From positions 1 to 50,633 of the forward strand of contig NW_021834469.1 in NCBI RefSeq assembly GCF_006345805.1: DNA of 50,633 nucleotides, in the 5' to 3' direction. Position 1 is the first letter of the stretch, and every line of letters begins with the position of its first letter. The notes under the pieces are model-generated. The model saw nothing but the letters and a program-made list of their open reading frames with translations, was not told where the DNA came from and made no database searches. Positions 6,525 to 49,730 of the stretch are shown here, in pieces. The stretch comes from Octopus sinensis. Its lineage: Eukaryota. Both the position numbers and the translations under genes were made by a program.

Positions 6525-6910
6525 TGAGTGGTAAGAAGTTTGCTTCTCGATCACATGTTTCCGCGATCGGTTCTACTAAGGAGAATCTAGGAGAAATGTC
6601 TTCTAAAGTAGCCTCGGTATGACCAAAACCTTGTGAGAGGATCTGGTAGACGGAAACTGAAAGAAGCCCGTCATATATATCTTTGTGTGTATGTCTTTGT
6701 ATCTCTATTTGTGCACACTACCGCATAATCACCGGTGTTGGTGTGTTTCTGTTCCCGTAATTAGCGGTTCGGTGAAAAAGACCAGATAAAATAACTACCA
6801 GTCTTTAAAAAAGAAAATACTGAGGTTGATCCAATCAGCTAAAATTTCACAAAGGGGTAGCCCCACCATGGCCGCCGGTAAACGAAACGACTGACAAGGT
6901 TAAAAGATAA
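6525..6910 (+). mobile_element. SINE family A, diverged copy
   Basis: ccttgtgagaggatctggtagacggaaactgaaagaagcccgtc and ttagcggttcggtgaaaaagacc match family A. Confidence 0.85.
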
Positions 6911-6939
6911 AAAAATTATATTAGGTGCTGTTTATTTTC

Positions 6940-7265
6940 ATTCCTTTGTTTTCAAAAGTTTATTTTAAGCGGTTGCCATGACGATAACACAGCAGCTGCA
7001 ATGCTCGCAGAAATTACAACGAACTTTGCTGTTATTATCCACAGAATAACTATTTGTTCTATTACCATTCTCTGTACGATTTCAACATACCTATTATGGA
7101 AATCTGAGAATGATATAGTAGTGTGTCATGATTGCATAGCTAAAGATTTAGAATTCGGAGGAGAGACGAAAGACGAGAACCGGGAGATTAGAAAACTTGA
7201 AAGAACTAGACGTGGCCTGCTTCTGTAGAAACCAGATACAATTTTTGTAGTTTTATTTACCCTGT
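6940..7265. repeat. Non-SINE segment duplicated in inverted orientation at 20132-20470
   Basis: Core ~7000-7262 differs from the reverse complement of ~20137-20400 at only about 4 positions by eye. Confidence 0.95.
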
Positions 7266-7507
7266 TTTATTTATATGTATATATATATATATCTATATAT
7301 ATATATATATAATATATATATAATATAATATAATATGAGGATATATAGATTGGCTACACTAGAATATTTCAAGCAGTGCCCCAGCATGACCGTGGTCAAA
7401 TGACTAGAACAAATAAATAGTAAAAAAGATGCATATAAACACATATATATGCATATAAATATGCACATATACATACATATATATACTTACACATATTATA
7501 TATATTG

Positions 7508-7557
<50 letters not shown>

Positions 7558-7952
7558 TTTTTCTCTTTTATTCATTTAATTTTTTTCAGTCATCTGACTA
7601 CGGCCATGCTGGAGCAACCCTCCAGTCGAGCAAATCGACCCCGGAACTTATTCCTGTTAAGCCTACTACTTATTCTACCAGTTTCATTTGCCGAACCGCA
7701 AAGTTACGGGGACGTAGAGACATTAAAATCGGTTGTCAAGCGATGGCTGGGGAGGGGCGGACAAACGCAGACGTACAATCATATACATACATATACGAAG
7801 GGCTTCTTTCAGTTTCCGTCAACAAAATCCACTCACAAGGCTTCGGTCGGCCCGAGACTATAGCAGAAGACACTTGCCCAAGGTGCCATGCAGTGGGACT
7901 GAACCCGGAACCATGTGGTTGGTAAGCAACCAGCTTCCCATGCAGCCGCGCC
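7558..7952 (-). mobile_element. SINE family A, near full-length
   Basis: Reverse complement of the family A consensus from head (…gcgcc) to A-rich tail. Confidence 0.92.
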
Positions 7953-8022
7953 TACATCTATATGTATATATACAATATTAAATCTTTGAGTGATATATAT
8001 ATATATATATACATATATACAT

Positions 8023-8110
8023 GAAGCTCCTTCTATAAAATAAATTAATTTACTCTGCTATGTATTGAGTACCTTATTGACTGTGGTTAACCCCGACTCA
8101 ACCCGGGACC
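8023..8110 (+). mobile_element. 88-nt insert between (TA)n tracts, starting with the 3' cleavage-product sequence of the 44108 hammerhead
   Basis: GAAGCTCCTTCTATA at 8023-8037 is identical to 44154-44168; TA repeats on both sides. Confidence 0.55.
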
Positions 8111-14520: not shown

Positions 14521-14737
14521 TCTCTTTACTCTTTTACTCTTTTACTTGTTTCCGTCATTTGACTGCGGCCATGCTGGAGTACCGCCTTTAGTTGAGCAAA
14601 TCGACCCCGGGACTTATTCTTTGTAAGCCTAGTACTTATTCTATCGGTCTCTTTTGCCGAACCGCTAAGTGACGGGGACGTAAACACACCAGCATCGGTT
14701 GTCAAGCAATGCTAGGGAGACAAACACAGACACACAA

Positions 14738-14792
<55 letters not shown>

Positions 14793-18341: not shown

Positions 18342-18841
18342 GGCACTTTGTTCGCATAGAATTTTCCTTTTGGCGCGGTTACCGTGATTATTTTTAATAG
18401 GTTTTTCCTTCCACGGATAATTCTATGTCAGTGTCAAATTTTCTCTTCCATTTGGGAATTCATATGGTTAAAAAACGTCACCTTGTTATCTATTTGTGCA
18501 CACGCATCCCGCCAAAATTTCTTTTTTCAATCCCTTTTGATCGATTTCGAAAAAGAAAAATTCTACATTGTTTTGTCCCCTCTGTGTTAAGCTCTGTTTG
18601 GCAAAATGATCTGTCTCTCTCTCTCTCTTTATCTATCTATCTCTTTCCCTGTTTCATTACGTAATAAAAGTTATTTCTACTAAACATTTTAATATTCCTT
18701 GCATGTAGTATATTAGAACTATCTTAACACAGCTTGATTAATATATTCATATTGTGAGCTCAGACGCCATAGAAATATCAAATTTCACAGTGAAAATACG
18801 GCTTTCGATAAAATAAATAAAAAATTAGCAGTAAATATATA

Positions 18842-19245
18842 GGCGCAGGAGTGGCTGTGTGGTAAGTAGCTTGCTTACCAACCACATGGTTCCGAGTTCA
18901 GTCCCACTGCGTGGCATCTTAGGCAAGTGTCTTCTGCTATAGCCCCGGGCCGACCAAAGCCTTGTGAGTGGATTTGTTAGACGGAAACTGAAAGAAGCCT
19001 GTCGTGTATATGTATATATATATGTGCGTGTATGTGTTTGTGTGTCTGTGTTTGTCCCCCTAGCATTGCTTGACAACCGATGTTGGTGTATTTACGTCCC
19101 CGTCACCTAGCGGTTCGGCAAAAGAGACCGATAGAATAAGTACTGGGCTTACAAAGAATAAGTCCCGGGTTCGATTTGCTCGACTAAAGGCGGTGCTCCA
19201 GCATGGCCGCAGTCAAATGACTGAAACAAGTAAAAGAGAGAAAGA
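18842..19245 (+). mobile_element. SINE family A, full-length young copy
   Basis: tRNA-like head with A-box (TGGCTGTGTGG) and B-box (AGTTCAGTCCC), internal TA/TG microsatellite, tail aaacaagtaaaagag; near-identical to 41847-42250. Confidence 0.95.
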
Positions 19246-19777
19246 GAGAGAGAGTGAGAGAGGGATTCGATACCTCGACCACGAGAATTCTGACTGTATT
19301 TTGGTCACGCTGCACTTTAATTACTTGTCGGGAGCCATTATTTTCTCAGTAACATTTATGTAGCTGTGTATTGGTTATTACCAAGTCTTGGAGATACCCA
19401 ATAGATATCTTAACCAGCTCTTATCTCATTCTTCTTACACACACACACATAAACACTCATACACAGATATATGAATAGATGTCTATGAACGGATATACTC
19501 AGATAGATGAATGCATGTCTATAAACGAGTGTATATATATATATACGCGTACATATCCACGAGTATGCCTATATTTTTTGCGTAAGGTTTATGTGTGCGC
19601 GCACAAAGAAGCATATGTATATACATGTATATGAATGTATGTCTGTATACACACAATATATGTGTACAGGAAATACTATATATATATATATATATATGTA
19701 TATTTATACAGTTATATATGTTCAGCATACATATACATGTAAGTATATATGTATACATGTAGGTATATATATAATAT

Positions 19778-20063: not shown

Positions 20064-20131
20064 TTATATACGTACACACACATGTATATTATATATATAT
20101 ATAGTATATATATATATATATATATATATAT

Positions 20132-20470
20132 AACCAGGTAAATAAAACTACAAAAATTGTATCTGGTTTCGGCAGAAGCAGGCCACGTCTAGTTCTTTCA
20201 AGTTTTCTAATCTCCCGGTTCTCGTCTATCGTCTCTCCTCCGAATTCCAAATCTTTAGCTATGCAATCATGACACACTACTATATCATTCTCAGATTTCC
20301 ATAATAGGTATGTTGAAATCGTACAGAGAATGGTAATAGAACAAATAGTTATTCTGTGGATAATAACAGCAAAGTTCGTTGTAATTTCTGCGAGCATTGC
20401 AGTTGCTGTGTTCTCGCCATGGCGACCGCTTAAAATAAACTTTTGGAAACAAAGAAATAACGAAAAACAA
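20132..20470. repeat. Second, inverted copy of the 6940-7265 segment
   Basis: ORF track gives the same peptide MLAEITTNFAVIIHR... on opposite strands at the two loci. Confidence 0.95.
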
Positions 20471-20487
20471 CACAAACTAAATCTTGT

Positions 20488-20716
20488 ATCTTTTACTTGT
20501 TTGAGACGTTTGACTGCGGCCATGCTGTGGCACCCCGTGCAAAATTTTACTCCACGGAATCGATCTTACTACTTTGATTTATTTTAACCCTGGTAGTTAT
20601 CCTATCGTTGTATTTTGCCGAACCGCTAACTTACGGGGACGCAAACACACCAACAGCCGTTGTCAAGCGTTGATGGTTGGTGGTGGTGGGTTTGGCAAAC
20701 ACAGACACACAGACAT

Positions 20717-25234: not shown

Positions 25235-25399
25235 TACACGCATTTTTTCTCTCCTTGACTTTTTCTGTGTATTTTTCTGTCGAAGAGCGTAGGCTCGAAA
25301 CATAAAAGACTTTTTCTATTCCTGAGCGCTATACTAATATATTTGTTTGATTGTACTCCACCTGCCTTCGTCTTTTGTTTATTTTCGTAAACTTTCCCG

Positions 25400-25400
<1 letters not shown>
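25235..25400 (+). mobile_element. Repeat family C (variant-hammerhead element) 3' end
   Basis: ttttctgtcgaagagcgtaggctcgaaacataaaagac...gagcgctatactaata...cttcgtcttttg...then (TA)n. Confidence 0.8.
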
Positions 25401-25432
<32 letters not shown>

Positions 25433-25435
<3 letters not shown>

Positions 25436-25585
25436 CAAATTTACAGAGAAACAAAACACGAAGACCGGTGTATGAACAACAAACAGATGTATTAGTTTAA
25501 TGCTCGCTCCTTTATGTTTCGAGCTTACGCTCTTCGGCAGAAATGAATACGAAGGAAAAAATCGAGAGATAATGAGAAAATAACA
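25433..25585 (-). mobile_element. Repeat family C 3' end, tail-to-tail with the previous copy
   Basis: cgaagaccggtgt...aacaaacagatgtattagtttaatgctcg...tttcgagcttacgctcttcggcag. Confidence 0.78.
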
Positions 25586-26570: not shown

Positions 26571-26804
26571 ATGTCTCGTGTTAGAGCTTGTTGCAAAGAG
26601 TTGTTGAGGCAGTGTTATATTTTGCGGTTCAAAACGAAGTCCAATGGGCGAACATACACAATTTGACTTAGGCGGTAGTTGCCGACGACTTCGAGGTTTT
26701 CGTGATCATCAGCTTTCATTGACCAAGAGTAACATCTATATAGAAAGATGGTCCACATAACTGTTTGGATAATGATGATGCAAGCAATATTTTTTTATAT
26801 TTTT

Positions 26805-27220
26805 AACTACCCACAAGAGGTTAAACACAAAGGAGACAAACAAGGACAGTCAAACGGATTAAGTCGATTACATCGACCCTAGTGCATAACTGGTACTTAA
26901 TTTATCGACCCCGAAAGGATGAAATGTAAAGTCGAACTCGGCGGATTTTGAACTCAGAACGTAAAGACAGACGAAATACATATTTCTATTTCTTTACTAC
27001 CCACAAGGAGCTAAACACAGAGAGAACAAACAAGAAGAGTCAAACGGATTAAATCGATTATATCGACCCCAGTGCGTAACTGGTACTTAATTTATCGACC
27101 CCGAAAGGATGAAAGGCAAAGTCGACCTCGCCGGAATTTGAACTCAGAACGTAACGGCAGTCGAAATACGGCTACGCATTTCGCCCCGCGTGCTAACGAT
27201 TCTGCCAGCTCCCCGCCGCC
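26805..27220 (-). mobile_element. SINE family B, full copy plus tandem partial copy (long tail)
   Basis: Two consecutive actacccacaag...gcgtaactggtacttaatttatcgaccccgaaaggatgaa...gaactcagaacgtaa units. Confidence 0.9.
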
Positions 27221-27378: not shown

Positions 27379-27389
<11 letters not shown>

Positions 27390-27409
<20 letters not shown>

Positions 27410-28180
27410 AAGCGTATAAGAACACAAACATATATGAGTACACACACACACATACGCATACAAAAATAAGCGTTACTGTCAGACAGTACACATGCATATC
27501 TATAGATCTATAGGTAATAATAATGGTAGATCAATATTTAAAGCTATCGATTTTTCACTTGCAAATAAATACAAAGAAACTTCATGCGCACACACACGCA
27601 TCGCATATATATCTATGATTTATATGTGTATATATCCGTCCCACCCTCCAACCATCCATCCATCCATATATATATATATATATATATACTATATATATAT
27701 ATATATATATATATACTATATATATATATATACATACACATATATGCATTTATATATATGTATGCACACACACACACACCACACACACACACACAGAGAA
27801 GCGTATAAGAACACAAACATATATGAGTACACACACACACATACGCATACAAAAATAAGCGTTACTGTCAGACAGTACACATGCATATCTATAGATCTAT
27901 AGGTAATAATAATGGTAGATCAATATTTAAAGCTATCGATTTTTCACTTGCAAATAAATACAAAGAAACTTCATGCGCACACACACGCATCGCATATATA
28001 TCTATGATTTATATGTGTATATATCCGTCCCACCCTCCAACCATCCATCCATCCATATATATATATATATATATATATACTATATATATACTATATATAT
28101 ATATATATACTATATATATATATATATATATACATACACATATATGCATTTATATATATGTATGCACACACACACACACA
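27390..28180. repeat. ~389-nt direct tandem duplication
   Basis: Identical ORF starts [21 protein letters not shown] at 27492 and 27881; copies differ mainly in microsatellite lengths. Confidence 0.95.
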
Positions 28181-29972: not shown

Positions 29973-30140
29973 GTGAGAATTTGCAAAAAAACAAAAATAC
30001 AAAAGATGAAGACAGGTGTGTAAATAACAAACAGTTGTATTAGTTTAACGCTCGGGAAGTGAGAAATTCATTTACGTTTCGAGCCTACGCTCTTCGACAG
30101 AAGGGAACAGAAGTAAACAGGGAAGAAAATAAAAATGGTT
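29972..30140 (-). mobile_element. Repeat family C 3' end abutting (TA)n
   Basis: gaagacaggtgtgt...gtattagtttaacgctcgggaagt...acgtttcgagcctacgctcttcgacag. Confidence 0.8.
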
Positions 30141-38810: not shown

Positions 38811-39473
38811 ATCAATCTCAATATCGCCATTGTTATTAACCAGCCTGACCAGATGGTTAAATATCGCAAGTGTCTCGATATTTTGTTGATTGGTCGTTAG
38901 GCTTTTTATCGTTTGTTTTAGTTTTTCTTGACATTGATTTTGAAACCAAACTTTTCAGAATTCCGTTCTTGTTCTGATGTGAGCCGTTCTAGGACCTTGG
39001 TTTCTCAAAGTAAGCAAAACAATTTCACGAGCAGTATTCAAGCCATTCAGTCGCAGCTGTCGTTTCCACAGTTTTCTCCTACCATTGAGTATCATTGCTG
39101 TTTTCTTTGGCAAAGTCTACAGCCAGCAACAACAACAGGAGCGACAGAATGCAGCCTTGTATCTCTCCAGTAAAAATAACATACACAAACTGACACACAC
39201 ACATATAACCACACATTGGATTGGCATCCTTTCTGTCTCGGGAGACAATAAAGTTGAAGTAGTCTAGTCCGGCTTTTATATTTCATGTCCTGATACATTT
39301 CCTGCTGTGGCTGTGTAGTCCTATCCTGGCAAAACACTCCCTCTGGCAGGTACCGCAAATGTAGCGAAGACTTGTCCTGGCTGGTTGTAGTGCCAGGTCT
39401 TCTTGTTTACGTCTTTCCTTTCTTTCCATTTCTCCTCTCTCTCTCTCTGTCACTCCTTTGTATTCCCTCTTTT

Positions 39474-39656
39474 ATAAACACACAAGTATATACATATACA
39501 TATATAAACACACAAGTATATACATATACATATATAAACACACAAGTATATACATATACATATATAAACACACAAGTATATACATATACATATATAAACA
39601 CACAAGTATATACATATACATATATAAACACACAAGTATATACATATACATATATA
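39474..39656. repeat. 30-nt minisatellite, 6 essentially perfect units, at the internal repeat of a minus-strand family A SINE
   Basis: (ataaacacacaagtatatacatatacatat)6 followed by gagcttctttcagc...aatccactcacaagg. Confidence 0.95.
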
Positions 39657-40527
39657 CAACGAGCTTCTTTCAGCTCTCTTCTGCAAAATCCACTCACAAG
39701 GATTTGGTTCGGCCCAGGGCTGTAGTGGAATACACCTCGCCCAACATAACACGCAGTGGGACTGAATCTGGAACTATGTGATTCAGAATTAAGCTTCGGA
39801 AGAATTTTTATCCTGAGAAAGAGATAAAGAAATGAAAAGAACATTCCACTCATATCAAGCAACTGTAGACCTACTATGCTTGCCCCTCTCTTATATATCA
39901 ATTTCCTATACGTTGCTTCAAATTCTGATTATCTATGTTACATATGATTGTCTTTTCTACGCTGTGTATTTGTATTTTCAAAGTTATCAACACAATTATA
40001 TATTCATGTCATAGCCGTACACTAATCTGTATTATAAGGAAATATCTATATTGAAATCAATTTACGAAATTCATTCACCGATGCCTACACAATATGTATA
40101 TGTATAATATATATATATATCACAATACACACATACACATAGATTAGTACATACATACAGAAAAGAAACTATACATATAATAATATATATATATATATAT
40201 ATAATATATATATATATATATACACTTACACACACGTATATATACACATATGTATGTATTATGTATGCATAAGTATATACGTATTTTCCACTTGTCGATC
40301 CTTCTATACACACACACACACACACACACCCGTATGTAAATGAACCTTCGTCTAGCGTCTGACGTCAGTCTTATATATATATTTGTCCCATAGCTGAACA
40401 TCAAGCGCTGTAGAAAGATTTGCCTGAAATGAGCGAAGACATAAAATAACAATAAAATAGTCTTCTTGTTCTTCATCATCATCGTCGACATCCCCCTACT
40501 CATTATCATCATGATCATCATCGTCAC

Positions 40528-40890: not shown

Positions 40891-41150
40891 ATTGCCTTTG
40901 CACAGCTTCTAACGCTGGAGATGTACTACGGTGTCAGCTGTTCACTACCAGTGAACTAAGGTAACACCCCTTATTTTTCGAATAATTTCCGGAATATTCG
41001 AGCGTTCTAAGCAGTGCTGTTTTCTGCAAGTGCTCCAACCTTATTGCAGCCCCTATTTGTTCCACGTACTTCTCAAGATTTTTACTTAATGTCCCCAGGG
41101 CTCCGACGATTATTGGTACTACTGCTACCTCTTTCATCGACCACAACTGT
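40891..41150 (-). mobile_element. 3' end of an RLE-type non-LTR retrotransposon (R4/Dong-like)
   Basis: VAVVPIIVGALGTLSKNLEKYVEQIG...LQKTALLRT(frameshift)RIFRKLF matches the VPIVIGALG...LQKxALLGTARILR C-terminus; (TAA)n arrays on both sides. Confidence 0.82.
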
Positions 41151-41506
41151 TTTACATCCCAAACTAATCTGTTGTATTCATTATTATTACAATTATTATT
41201 ATTATTATTATATTATTATTATTATTATTATTATTTATTATTATTATTATTATTAAAATTTTTGTTGTACTTGACTTTCATAGTGTGAAGACGTTATATT
41301 TTCTTCTCCCTACGAAACACATTCTTATTGAAGCAAAGTTAAACTTTCAAGTAAAAAGAATTATAATTTCTTTTTTTTTTTTTCATTTTTTCTCTTCTTT
41401 TACACCTTTGATACTTGGTTGTAGAAAACAGAAAAGAAAGGTTTTTTTTTTTCTTTCTTACAAACTTTTAAAATTTTATTTCACCCTTTGCAGTTTCAGA
41501 TCGAAG

Positions 41507-41552: not shown

Positions 41553-41846
41553 GTAAGAAAAAAGGCTACGCAAAACCAAAAACTTACAAATTAAATTTAG
41601 CAGCGGAACTTGAGAATAAAAAAGCTCAGTGAAGATTTAATAGAAGGAAATGTTCCAAATACGCAAATAAGTAATTTGGAAGCATGCAGCATTATCAAAA
41701 ACAGGAGCCGTAATAGTTACAACAGTATCAAGTCTTGCATAATTCTCGTTCATTTAGCTGTCGTCTGAAGACAAGCGATCGCTCCACAATGAATAATCAA
41801 ATAGAATTTTGTGACCTGGCAGAGTTACATGGAAAAAATATGGATA

Positions 41847-42250
41847 GGCGCAGGAGTGGCTGTGTGGTAAGTAGCTTGCTTACCAACCGCATGGTTCCGG
41901 GTTCAGTCCCACTGCGTGGCACCTTGGGCAAGTGTCTTCTGCTATAGCCCCGGGCCGACCAATGCCTTGTGAGTGGATTTGGTAGACGGAAACTGAAAGA
42001 AGCCTGTCGTATATATGTATATATATATATATGTATGTGTTTGTGTGTCTGTGTTTGTCCCCCTAGCATTGCTTGACAACCGATGCTGGTGTGTTTACGT
42101 CCCCGTCACTTAGCGGTTCGGCAAAAGAGACCGATAGAATAAGTACTGGGCTTACAAAGAATAAAGTCCCGGGGTCGATTTGCTCGACTAAAGGCGGTGC
42201 TCCAGCATGGCCGCAGTCAAATGACTGAAACAAGTAAAAGTGTAAAGAGA
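41847..42250 (+). mobile_element. SINE family A, full-length young copy
   Basis: ggcgcaggagtggctgtgtggtaag...gggttcagtcccactgcgtggcaccttgggcaagtgtc...catggccgcagtcaaatgactgaaacaagtaaaag. Confidence 0.95.
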
Positions 42251-42972: not shown

Positions 42973-43959
42973 ATCAGCCAAAGATGCTTTTAGCATCGCA
43001 TTTGAGGACATATAGAAAATACTCCCGGAACTGGAAAAAATTTTCTTGCAGTAACCCTTCGGGCAATGAAGTACCGTCTTCGTCGTATCTTCTCACATCG
43101 ACATTTCCCTTAGATCACAATCCTAGAATGCGACGACTGTTGTCGTTGCATTCTCTCTTATAGATTCTCTTCGTACAATTTGTATTGTTTCTTTTACATT
43201 AGAATTAATGTTTGCAAAACTATAAGAGTTTTTTTTTTACCTATTCTCATCATGTAACTGGTTATCGTGCAGCTGTTAACAGCACAAATGTTTACGCTTG
43301 AAGCTGTGTCCGTCTGTCTGTTTAATGTTCCTACTGTCTGTCTCGCTTAAAAGTTTGAATTCGTGTTTGAAAACAATGGAGACGGATGTGTTTGTTTATA
43401 TCGTCGAAGCTGTTGTTGCTATTACCTCCACCGTGACGGCGAGTGTCTCTTCCTATTACCTTTGCAGCGGCCATCTTGTTGCAGGAGCAATTATTGGAAA
43501 TGACATAGAGCAGCAATTAATACGGAGAAACAAAACAATGTCAAGACAAGCAGTTCTCCATCACAAGGAATTGGATGGATTCTTAAATAACCCGAAAGGC
43601 TTTCTTGATATTTCCGAACGTCAAAGGGCAAAACAAACAAAAACCTGTTTGCAATGAGGGATAATCGTGTTATAATCGACTTTCAGCTGAGGCTCCAAAG
43701 AAGGCATCCGTTCGTTTGGATAGCAACAAAAACAACAACAACAACAACAACAGCAACAACAACTATTTCACAATCCCATGATTCCGGGTTCAGTCCCAAT
43801 GTATGGAACCTTGGCAAGTGTCTCCTACACTCTCATTCTCTCTCTCTCCCTGTCTCTCTATCTCTCTCTCCAGCATAGGCAAATCCTTGAGAGTGGATAT
43901 GGTAGACAGAAACTGAAAGAAGCCCTTCTCAGATGTATATGCATACATACATACATATA

Positions 43960-43995
<36 letters not shown>

Positions 43996-44107
43996 TATAA
44001 CCATATATATATATTATATAGATACTACATACATATATACATACATACATACATACATACATACTACATAACATACATACATACATACATCATATATATA
44101 TATATAT

Positions 44108-44160
44108 GAGCTTCCTGAAGATTTCTCTTGAATGAAACAGTTCTAGTCCTGTAGAAGCTC
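44108..44160 (+). ncRNA. Type I hammerhead ribozyme
   Basis: GAGCUUC-CUGAAGA-uUUCucuuGAAu-GAAA-CAGuucuagucCUG-UA-GAAGCUC; perfect 7-bp helix I, ACAG/CUGU helix III, GUA triplet, predicted cut after 44153; helix II closing pair is U-U. Confidence 0.8.
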
Positions 44161-44173
44161 CTTCTATATAATA

Positions 44174-44208
<35 letters not shown>

Positions 44209-44231
44209 ATATATAATATATTATATATATA

Positions 44232-44893
44232 CACAGGGACGCTCCCACTTGAACGCAGCGGCATGGATGATACAGAGAATAGAATAAAAGTGTGTGTGTG
44301 TGGTATATATATATATATAACCTCTACCCCCACCATCAGCGTAACCCACGTCCCACCCTTGCTCTCCCCACTCTCGCCTCCCCCACCTCCCAACACCATC
44401 ACACCACACCACACACCACTACACCATACACCACCATACTACACAACACATCACATCATATCACACCACCACGCACACACTAGCACTGACCACTTCCCAG
44501 CCCCACATTTTCACACCTACACATACGCACACCTACACATACGCACACGCAGACATCAAGGTCACCAGCCCTCTTCCACATGCACATACAAACTCTTTTA
44601 TACACACGCACGCACACCTTCGGTTTGGGATCACCACTACTTTGTTATCTCCCATTCTTCCTATCTCTCCCGTTCTGTGGCACCTCTCTCCTAATCCTGC
44701 CTGAATAGATCGCTAGCCACTACACATTCTTTATTTTCTCTCCTTGTTTCTTTCTGTGTTCCTTTCTGTAGAAGAGCGTAGGTTCGAAACGTTAAAAACT
44801 TTTTCACTTCCCGAGCGGTGTTATACTAATACATCTGTTTGTTGTCTACACCACCTGTCTTAGCCTTTTGTTTTTTTTTGTGAATTCTCCACT
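44232..44893 (+). mobile_element. Longest copy of repeat family C (~660 nt, non-coding, CA-rich) between TA tracts
   Basis: Contains the 42810 segment plus the variant HHR (44761-44798) and shared 3' end; 5' boundary approximate. Confidence 0.75.
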
Positions 44894-45779: not shown

Positions 45780-45945
45780 CACTTTGATCCTGCCTGCCTG
45801 AACTTTCTATTTCTTATTCCTTTATGTCATAGAGGTAGGCTCGAAACGTAAAATACTTTTCTATTTTCCATTTTTCTTAAAGTTAAACTAATACACCTCC
45901 TTGTTGTTCCTACACCTATCTTCGTCTTTCCTTTTCTGTAAACCT
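45780..45945 (+). mobile_element. Repeat family C, decayed 3' end
   Basis: gtaggctcgaaacgtaaaatacttttc...aaactaatacac...tcttcgtcttt. Confidence 0.65.
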
Positions 45946-47000: not shown

Positions 47001-47889
47001 GCCACCGCAATAAAAGAAACCCCAATCACGAGTCAAAAAACATTGTTGTAGAACACTCGCGTAAAAAGGTGCGAGTAATTTGAAAATTACTGTTGTGATT
47101 GAAAGAGCTTTTTAGCAAATGGACGTATTCTTGATTTCTGCCACTTTAGAGATTGCCTGAGTTTCATCGCCTGTTATATGTAGGCTTTTTTCGTTTGTTT
47201 GTTTGTTTTTATTTCATGTATAATGCGTATGTGTATGTGTGCAGTTGTGTTTGCATTACATGAGGCATAGCGTGATCCTGTTGCAATGCCATGCAAGTGT
47301 TCACTTAACTATGAAATAAAACGTGGCGAAAGTACGTGAATAAAATGTTCAAATGTTTTGATTGATATTTTTCATCCTTTTTATTCTGTTTCTTATTTAT
47401 AGTTCCCACTAATTTCATTTATTTATGTATTATTTGTATTATTTTACTTTATAATTTGTTATGTTTTTCTTCAAAATTATAGTTATATATATATGTTATT
47501 TTTATAGGACTGTTGTTTTATGTTGGTGTTTGTTTTAGGTATTTCATGGGAAATGAATGGAAAGTTCACCGAATAATTTACTTGAAAAATAAGAAAAAAA
47601 TATTCTACATATGTGATTCTAACTATGATAACGAAGAATGATTTTTAGATGCCGTGAATAGTTAGAAGAATCGGTAAATCGGTAAATTGAACGAAAGAGG
47701 GATTTTTACGATATTTAGGCAGCAGTCATATCCTTATATCCCAAGTTCAAGCCATACCAACTTGAATAATCTCATTTGTTCTTCTGCGGTTGGAAAAATA
47801 ACGCCAAAGGAATTTTGGTGTGTTTTGTAAGAATTCCGGGACCTAGAGCGTGATTCTTTCTACCGGCACTAGACAGCTCAATGAATGGT

Positions 47890-48181
47890 AAAATCTGGAG
47901 GAATAGCATTCTGATGGAAGAACACATTTCTTCTGGAAGCCAAAGACGGTCGTTTTTCTTCCCGCCCTGACTGAAGACGCTGAAGCTGCTCGCAGTAGAT
48001 CTCGTTTGTTATCGTTTGGTTCGGGTTTAAGAGCTCAAAGCGGACTAAGCTTTTCATATCCCACCAAGCAGATAACAACACCTTATGTGGGTGGAATCCT
48101 TCTTTGCCCAGGGGTGCCTGCGTTTCTCCTTTCCCTACCCACTGTCTTTGAAGCTTGATATTCTTTTAGAGAACCCATTTC
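47890..48181 (-). mobile_element. Mariner transposase fragment (catalytic domain, pseudogenised)
   Basis: KWVL*KN...QW...HPHKVLLSAWWDMKSLVRFELLNPNQTITNEIYCEQLQRL...EKRPSLASRRNVFFHQNA matches mariner KWxxY, HxxKvML.vWWD, YCxQL and HxDNA motifs. Confidence 0.92.
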
Positions 48182-49539: not shown

Positions 49540-49730
49540 TTTACGAAAAAAACAAAAGACGAAGACAGGTGGTGTACAAAACAAACGGATGTATTAGTAT
49601 AACGCTCAGGAATAGAAAAAGATTTTTACGTTTCGAGCCTACACTCTTCTACAGAAAGGGAAACAGCAAAACAAGGAGAGAAACAAGGAGAGAGAAAAAT
49701 GTGTGTAGTGGCTAACGACCTATCATGGCG
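49539..49730 (-). mobile_element. Repeat family C 3' end abutting (TA)n(GA)n
   Basis: aaaagacgaagacaggtggtgt...gtattagtataacgctcagg...acgtttcgagcctacactcttctacag. Confidence 0.82.

Follow-up and report, generated by a model that had tools for sequence, protein, structure and literature searches.

A type I hammerhead motif in an Octopus sinensis microsatellite belongs to a high-copy repeat family and is likely the 3′-terminal ribozyme of a Penelope-like element

A complete type I hammerhead motif, with a predicted cut after A44153, is located at 44108–44160 of the window, the whole stretch of 50,633 nt analysed here (positions 1 to 50,633 of Octopus sinensis contig NW_021834469.1), which is AT-rich animal DNA laden with microsatellites. 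The motif is carried by an insert of 67 bases between the tandem arrays at 43942–44106 and 44165–44231, and this insert is a truncated copy of a high-copy repeat family of its own. We consider it probable that the hammerhead of this highly repeated family is the 3′-terminal ribozyme of a Penelope-like element (PLE), with the Hydra clade being the closest known group, and that the insert is a 5′-truncated copy in a TA microsatellite. Observed directly were the motif itself, many variant copies, family flanks on both sides, a recurrent junction with (TA)n and a second piece of the family beginning at the predicted cut site. The insert and its surroundings consist of the following parts:

43942–44106 (no strand): (CATA)n/(TA)n array, a tandem repeat 5′ of the insertion
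44108–44114 (+): helix I, 5′ strand; the family sequence begins at 44109, and G44108 is probably from the flank
44115–44121 (+): catalytic core C3-A9, CUGAAGA
44122–44133 (+): helix II, with a U10.1·U11.1 mismatch (U44122·U44133), 3 bp and a UCUU loop
44134–44137 (+): core G12-A13-A14-A15.1, GAAA
44137–44152 (+): helix III, ACAG/CUGU (44137–44140/44149–44152), with an 8-nt loop containing a centred CUAG palindrome
44151–44153 (+): GUA cleavage triplet, predicted cut after 44153
44154–44160 (+): helix I, 3′ strand, 7 bp with 44108–44114
44161–44174 (+): short 3′ end of the element, merging into (TA)n; other copies also reach (TA)n here
44165–44231 (no strand): (TA)n array, a tandem repeat 3′ of the insertion

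The motif at 44108–44160 has the CUGANGA, GAAA and NUH core of type I hammerheads and the three helices with helix I open-ended, although helix II is weak (pair probability ~0.06). The R10.1-Y11.1 pair, usually G-C, is absent with U·U in its place, and the loop 1 region of the family is absent from the truncated copy at 44108–44174. A full core, an ACAG/CUGU helix III with an 8-nt loop and a GUA site had been proposed in the first-pass annotation, and all of these were recovered. Both strands of the window were scanned with a hammerhead pattern requiring at least 6, 3 and 3 pairs in helices I, II and III, respectively, and 44108–44160 was the only match on either strand. At these thresholds a match of any kind was seen in only 1/1000 dinucleotide shuffles of the window (0/1000 with at least 7 pairs in helix I, 7/1000 at the loosest setting), which makes it scarcely credible that the motif is a chance arrangement of bases. 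Such a reading could draw on the Rfam searches, in which no hammerhead model was among the 12 matches of the motif at E≤10 or among the 150 of 173 matches listed for the window, with the matches listed being microsatellite-driven miRNA models only, and on the unremarkable folding energy (z-score −0.66 to −1.30). It is opposed, next to the shuffles, by the strong likeness of the motif to published PLE hammerheads and by the sole variant with readable letters, which is changed at N7 and loop II alone. The fold with all three helices represents ~2% of the predicted ensemble, because bases of the core can also pair with loop II. We conclude that 44108–44160 is a real hammerhead motif, whose cleavage is predicted only.

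Copies of the insert were sought by comparing 44104–44178 at 80% likeness with the assembled contigs of four public runs, X1, X2, X14 and X15, the last of which is known from its contigs alone, is only guessed to be RNA and gives no indication of transcription. X14 returned 0 contigs, a zero that may be false and is not counted as absence. Matching contigs numbered 426 in X1, 4,754 in X2 and 72 in X15, with 197, 1,470 and 50 of these, respectively, being at least 99% identical. They cover the insert from about 44108 to about 44175, and the loose ends of the contigs show that the family sequence extends both upstream of 44109 and downstream of 44174. The insert had previously been described as an island within microsatellites, which is accurate for the arrays on both sides, but given the numbers of contigs in X1 and X2 and the continuation of the family in both directions it is not a lone one. 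The contigs departing from the window sequence at 44109 (13 in X1, 48 in X2 and 2 in X15) have a pyrimidine consensus at 44108, so that helix I of the family is likely to be 6 bp; the 7-bp helix I noted earlier does have seven pairs in the window, but the seventh is likely not that of the family. Behind 44174 there is a (TA)n consensus in 19 X1 contigs and a further unique stretch instead of (TA)n in X15, with X2 being mixed. One X15 contig has an inverted variant copy joined to the hammerhead motif, and inverted copies joined to another copy are frequent in PLE insertions (PMC8557442). With the motif being one of very many near-identical copies, and with no sign of conservation at the locus, it is highly improbable that a stand-alone or host-domesticated monomeric hammerhead, or a 5′ ribozyme of the neighbouring repeat family C, acts at this position, even though closure of helix III within a monomer is feasible and the core bases are all intact.

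The upstream loose ends gave a consensus of 30 noisy letters (agreement 0.63–0.83), of which no copy was found in the window (one match at 3 mismatches versus 0.77 expected). One frame of this consensus resembles a GIY-YIG terminus, '(G)LN', with a stop codon at helix I behind it; this reading was set aside, as two other frames read about equally well at that level of agreement; GLN occurs in Neptune and Naiad endonucleases (PMC8557442). A similarity at 39651–39668 proved to be the tail of another repeat. Pattern scans for the motif gave 0 loci in viral_contigs and 0 in metagenome_contigs, and exact matching of 20 nt yielded eight loci, 4 metagenome and 4 GTDB, none extending past 20–22 nt of the insert, which were dismissed as chance. 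The family was not found in the literature and supplements searched, and may be contained in the Zenodo O. vulgaris repeat library, in Repbase or in one supplement file of PMC4209133.

The U·U pair closing helix II had been regarded as the only defect of the motif. The mismatch is present (U44122·U44133), but is probably the state of the family and not a sign of decay, judging from the contigs. Of the 24 contig pieces listed, six cover both 44122 and 44133 and depart from the window at one position only; as G-C would require two changes, there is no G-C in these pieces. The inverted variant of the X15 contig comprises the 5′ half and is altered, by eye, at N7 and in loop II alone, with the U·U retained. 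No position had a second letter at a 5% threshold among the contigs, which by itself does not prove identity. U10.1-U11.1 occurs in natural hammerheads and, among mispairs, is the one that supports the most cleavage (Perreault et al. 2011, PMC3088659), and the axolotl HHR_Amex2, whose helix II likewise has a basal U·U, was 22% cleaved in 1 h (Cervera and de la Pena 2020, PMC7229834).

That the family behaves as a PLE terminus is well supported, and comparison was made with the Hydra-clade PLEs, for which the hammerheads of 25 families have been tabulated (Craig et al. 2021, PMC8557442, Files S1, S2 and S7). By our count, the base of helix II has a U on either strand in 14/25 of these families, as seen here, with Hydra-clade and window motifs alike showing CUGANGA-U ... 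U-GAA around a short helix II, and 4/25 share helix III ACAG/CUGU, three of them with A at the cut. A ribozyme near the 3′ end is also common to Hydra-clade PLEs and the window family. A preference for (TA)n is listed for 26/27 Hydra-clade families, and (TA)n insertion was likewise found for both pieces in the window and in the 19 X1 contigs; it is not unique to the Hydra clade, as Naiads also insert in (TA)n (PMC8557442). The same source shows several differences. Loop III is 1–3 nt in all 25 listed hammerheads (a common property and not a stated definition) but 8 nt here, no listed hammerhead combines U·U with ACAG/CUGU as the window motif does, helix II of the window motif is weaker (two U-A pairs and one C-G), and the hammerhead of the octopus element Hydra-1_oBim is unlike the window motif in sequence. 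Hydra-clade elements have a single ORF encoding a PLE reverse transcriptase (RWK and DKT motifs) with, at its C terminus, a GIY-YIG endonuclease lacking CCHH (PMC8557442). Of 174 window frames left after filtering, 111 were scanned with Pfam, and none matched a PLE reverse transcriptase or GIY-YIG domain; as the reading frame was not found, we can only infer from likeness that the family is closest to, and may belong in, the Hydra clade. In the Octopus vulgaris genome, 190 families of PLE-like repeats together account for 6.83% (PMC13282606), and the available part of that paper does not mention ribozymes.

The window contains a second piece of the hammerhead family, which includes a tail hairpin:

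8023–8110 (+): second piece, 88 nt, beginning at cut +1, with TA repeats on both sides and ending in (TA)n
8051–8073 (+): tail hairpin of the form RCUC-stem-loop-stem-2-nt bulge-GAGY-AC, with the only match to this form in the window at 8052–8073

The sequence of 8023–8043 is identical to 44154–44174 at 20/21 bases, and the 3 bases before 8023 are unlike the 3 bases before the cut in the hammerhead copy; the piece therefore begins exactly at the predicted cut site, in what is a single copy (n=1). Its continuation matches the X15 loose end (first 15 nt identical, 24/30 by eye), and the family has 3′ ends ~20 and 88 nt after the predicted cut. The distance from cut to end is 88 nt in Hydra-2_Ajap and 97 nt in Hydra-2_Amil, compared with 88 nt in 8023–8110, and both elements have a tail hairpin ~40 nt past the cut with, by eye, the layout of 8051–8073 (PMC8557442), the latter having an A-U outer pair where the two Hydra-2 elements have G-C. 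The outer stem has a folding z of −2.46. The hairpin descriptor was found in 0/20,000 shuffles of the piece and 18/500 of the window, a result which is inflated because the descriptor was drawn up with the sequence already in view. The tail hairpin, shared with Hydra-clade elements, is a candidate reverse transcriptase binding or priming signal.

A comparable arrangement is known from PAc (Poseidon) of Anolis, in which reverse transcription starts 85–92 nt past the hammerhead cut, as computed from the published positions, and which has two alternative 3′ ends and AT-rich targets like the window family (Frangieh et al. 2024, PMC11167929). The alternative ends of that element arise because reverse transcription starts at two internal sites. 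PAc differs in that its ORF begins inside the ribozyme, and in that its RNA reads reportedly did not start at the cut, whereas the window family has a genomic piece that does begin at the predicted position. The PAc ribozyme needed protein to cleave, and PAc insertion in vitro proceeded without a need for hammerhead cleavage (PMC11167929). The minimal hammerheads (min-HHRs) of metazoan PLEs resemble the window motif in being type I and located at a PLE terminus, in occurring mostly as single truncated copies, and in a helix III region whose palindromic sequence lends itself to dimers (Cervera and de la Pena 2014, PMC4209133). They are without helix III and have a bulged base after A9 and a G10.1-C11.1 pair, whereas in the window motif helix III comprises 4 bp and the pair is U·U. 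PLE hammerheads are mostly of low activity (PMC4209133).

The first-pass annotation had called the hammerhead monomeric in type. The 8-nt loop III may indeed permit action as a monomer, but the assignment is not secure, as helix III alone is predicted at only −1.4 kcal/mol, and a double hammerhead at −30.4 kcal/mol versus 2 × −10.2 kcal/mol for monomers, making the dimer 10 kcal/mol better. The centred CUAG in loop III allows two copies to pair at 12/16 positions; however, 105/840 permutations of the loop dimerise equally well, and the palindrome is therefore weak evidence for a dimer. The axolotl HHR_Amex2 shares a more stable helix III with the window motif, next to the U·U, and is weakly active as a monomer and better as a dimer, to which the window motif can be likened on predicted energies only (PMC7229834).

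HHR_Amex2 also illustrates a second possible origin, as it occurs in 350-bp tandem repeats producing circular RNA (PMC7229834), a tandem arrangement not seen in the window. The family could be a non-coding non-LTR retrozyme or another non-autonomous PLE derivative, the RNA of which would be cut to monomers and circularised, with the insert being a stray truncated monomer; we regard this as unlikely. Helix I of 6 bp, helix II of 4 positions and a stable helix III are nearer to canonical type I hammerheads than to minimal PLE hammerheads, the U·U is shared with a retrozyme that does cleave to the extent given above, and the motif is abundant in X15, with the reservation that this run is only guessed to be RNA. 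Retrozymes have also been proposed to derive from PLE termini (Li et al. 2026, bioRxiv 10.64898/2026.07.22.740005). Metazoan non-LTR retrozymes are marked by abundant circular monomer RNA and by tandem hammerhead repeats of 170–400 nt; repeats of this kind were searched for within the window and not found, and copies run out into (TA)n at a position that recurs. Furthermore, 8023–8110 runs into (TA)n without wrapping round to a second hammerhead, and its tail hairpin is like those of autonomous Hydra elements.

We therefore favour a terminal PLE ribozyme, and propose a route by which the two pieces in the window could have arisen. The endonuclease of the element would nick (TA)n DNA, allowing target-primed insertion by the PLE protein, with reverse transcriptase beginning at one of two sites downstream of the ribozyme, ~+20 or +88 nt from the cut. 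Reverse transcription would often stop early, resulting in 5′ truncation and the 67-nt copy. The parent RNA may be cut after GUA, probably slowly and aided by dimer formation or protein, and if the cut RNA were copied up to its new 5′ terminus, an insertion such as 8023–8110 would result. The genomic copy at 44108–44174 is most likely inert unless read through in the sense direction.

One more copy of such a motif would be ordinary, since PLE-terminal hammerheads are well documented and number thousands in animal genomes. The distinctive points are the longer loop III, the insertion bounded by the cut site and the shared tail hairpin. A bolder version of the PLE reading, which we hold to be possible yet doubtful, is that of a high-copy Hydra-type PLE in which the enlargement of loop III to 8 nt would let the hammerhead act as a monomer, and in which it would cleave in vivo, with insertions starting at the cut and ending past a conserved tail hairpin that marks the start of reverse transcription. 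If this were true, cut-site junctions would form a genomic record of PLE hammerheads cutting transposition RNA, and a pile-up of 5′ junctions at the cut site, as 8023–8110 hints, would point to cleavage in vivo. This bears on the role of PLE hammerheads, which show low activity in vitro and whose cleavage was dispensable for insertion in the one reconstituted system, and the family would provide a cheap test of that role because its copies are many and close in sequence.

The insert had also been placed directly upstream of the longest copy of family C. This was not borne out, as the first family C base aligning to another copy is 44571, ~400 nt past the end of the insert, and the family of the insert continues with a different sequence; family C is a repeat separate from the hammerhead family. 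Together with the presence in family C of a hammerhead-like motif of its own, this argues against the 44108–44160 motif serving as its 5′ ribozyme. The family C motif resembles a minimal hammerhead, with U for A6, a base bulged out ahead of its GAGC/GCUC helix II and no helix III, and was found in the following copies:

44766–44793 (+): family C motif
49627–49654 (−): family C motif
30073–30100 (−): family C motif
25277–25304 (+): family C motif
25513–25540 (−): family C motif
~45820–45850 (+): family C motif

In the five matched copies the motif lies 80–102 nt before (TA)n, and it fits the min-HHR description (PMC4209133) better than the motif at 44108–44160. A second PLE family likely ends in this motif, which is probably poorly active or inactive. 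The family C copies at 25245–25407 (+) and 25449–25573 (−) share a single (TA)n tract, which their tails face from opposite sides. The sequence between the insert and family C (44232–44570) consists of a short unique piece followed by pyrimidine- and CA-rich sequence, and may be an unaligned upstream part of family C.

Other repeats are scattered over the window. An abundant SINE-like repeat with (TA)/(CA) tails is present at 43770–43940, 7760–7970, 14530–14770, 18830–19250 and 41830–42170, with one copy located just 5′ of the hammerhead-bearing microsatellite. A frame at 40937–41212 (−), beside (AAT)n, lacks a Pfam match and is presumably like the restriction-like endonuclease end of an R4/Dong-type LINE, and a mariner-type transposase fragment was detected at 47881–48165 (−; Pfam Transposase_1, E 9.5e-19). 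The regions 27379–28179, 26794–27169, 39473–39656 and 1174–1385 contain tandemly duplicated units of 389 bp (97% match) and 190 bp, besides minisatellites with units of 30 bp (perfect) and 19 bp. Finally, 6904–7292 and 20106–20494 form an inverted repeat pair of 389 nt, which is 92% complementary and 12.8 kb apart.
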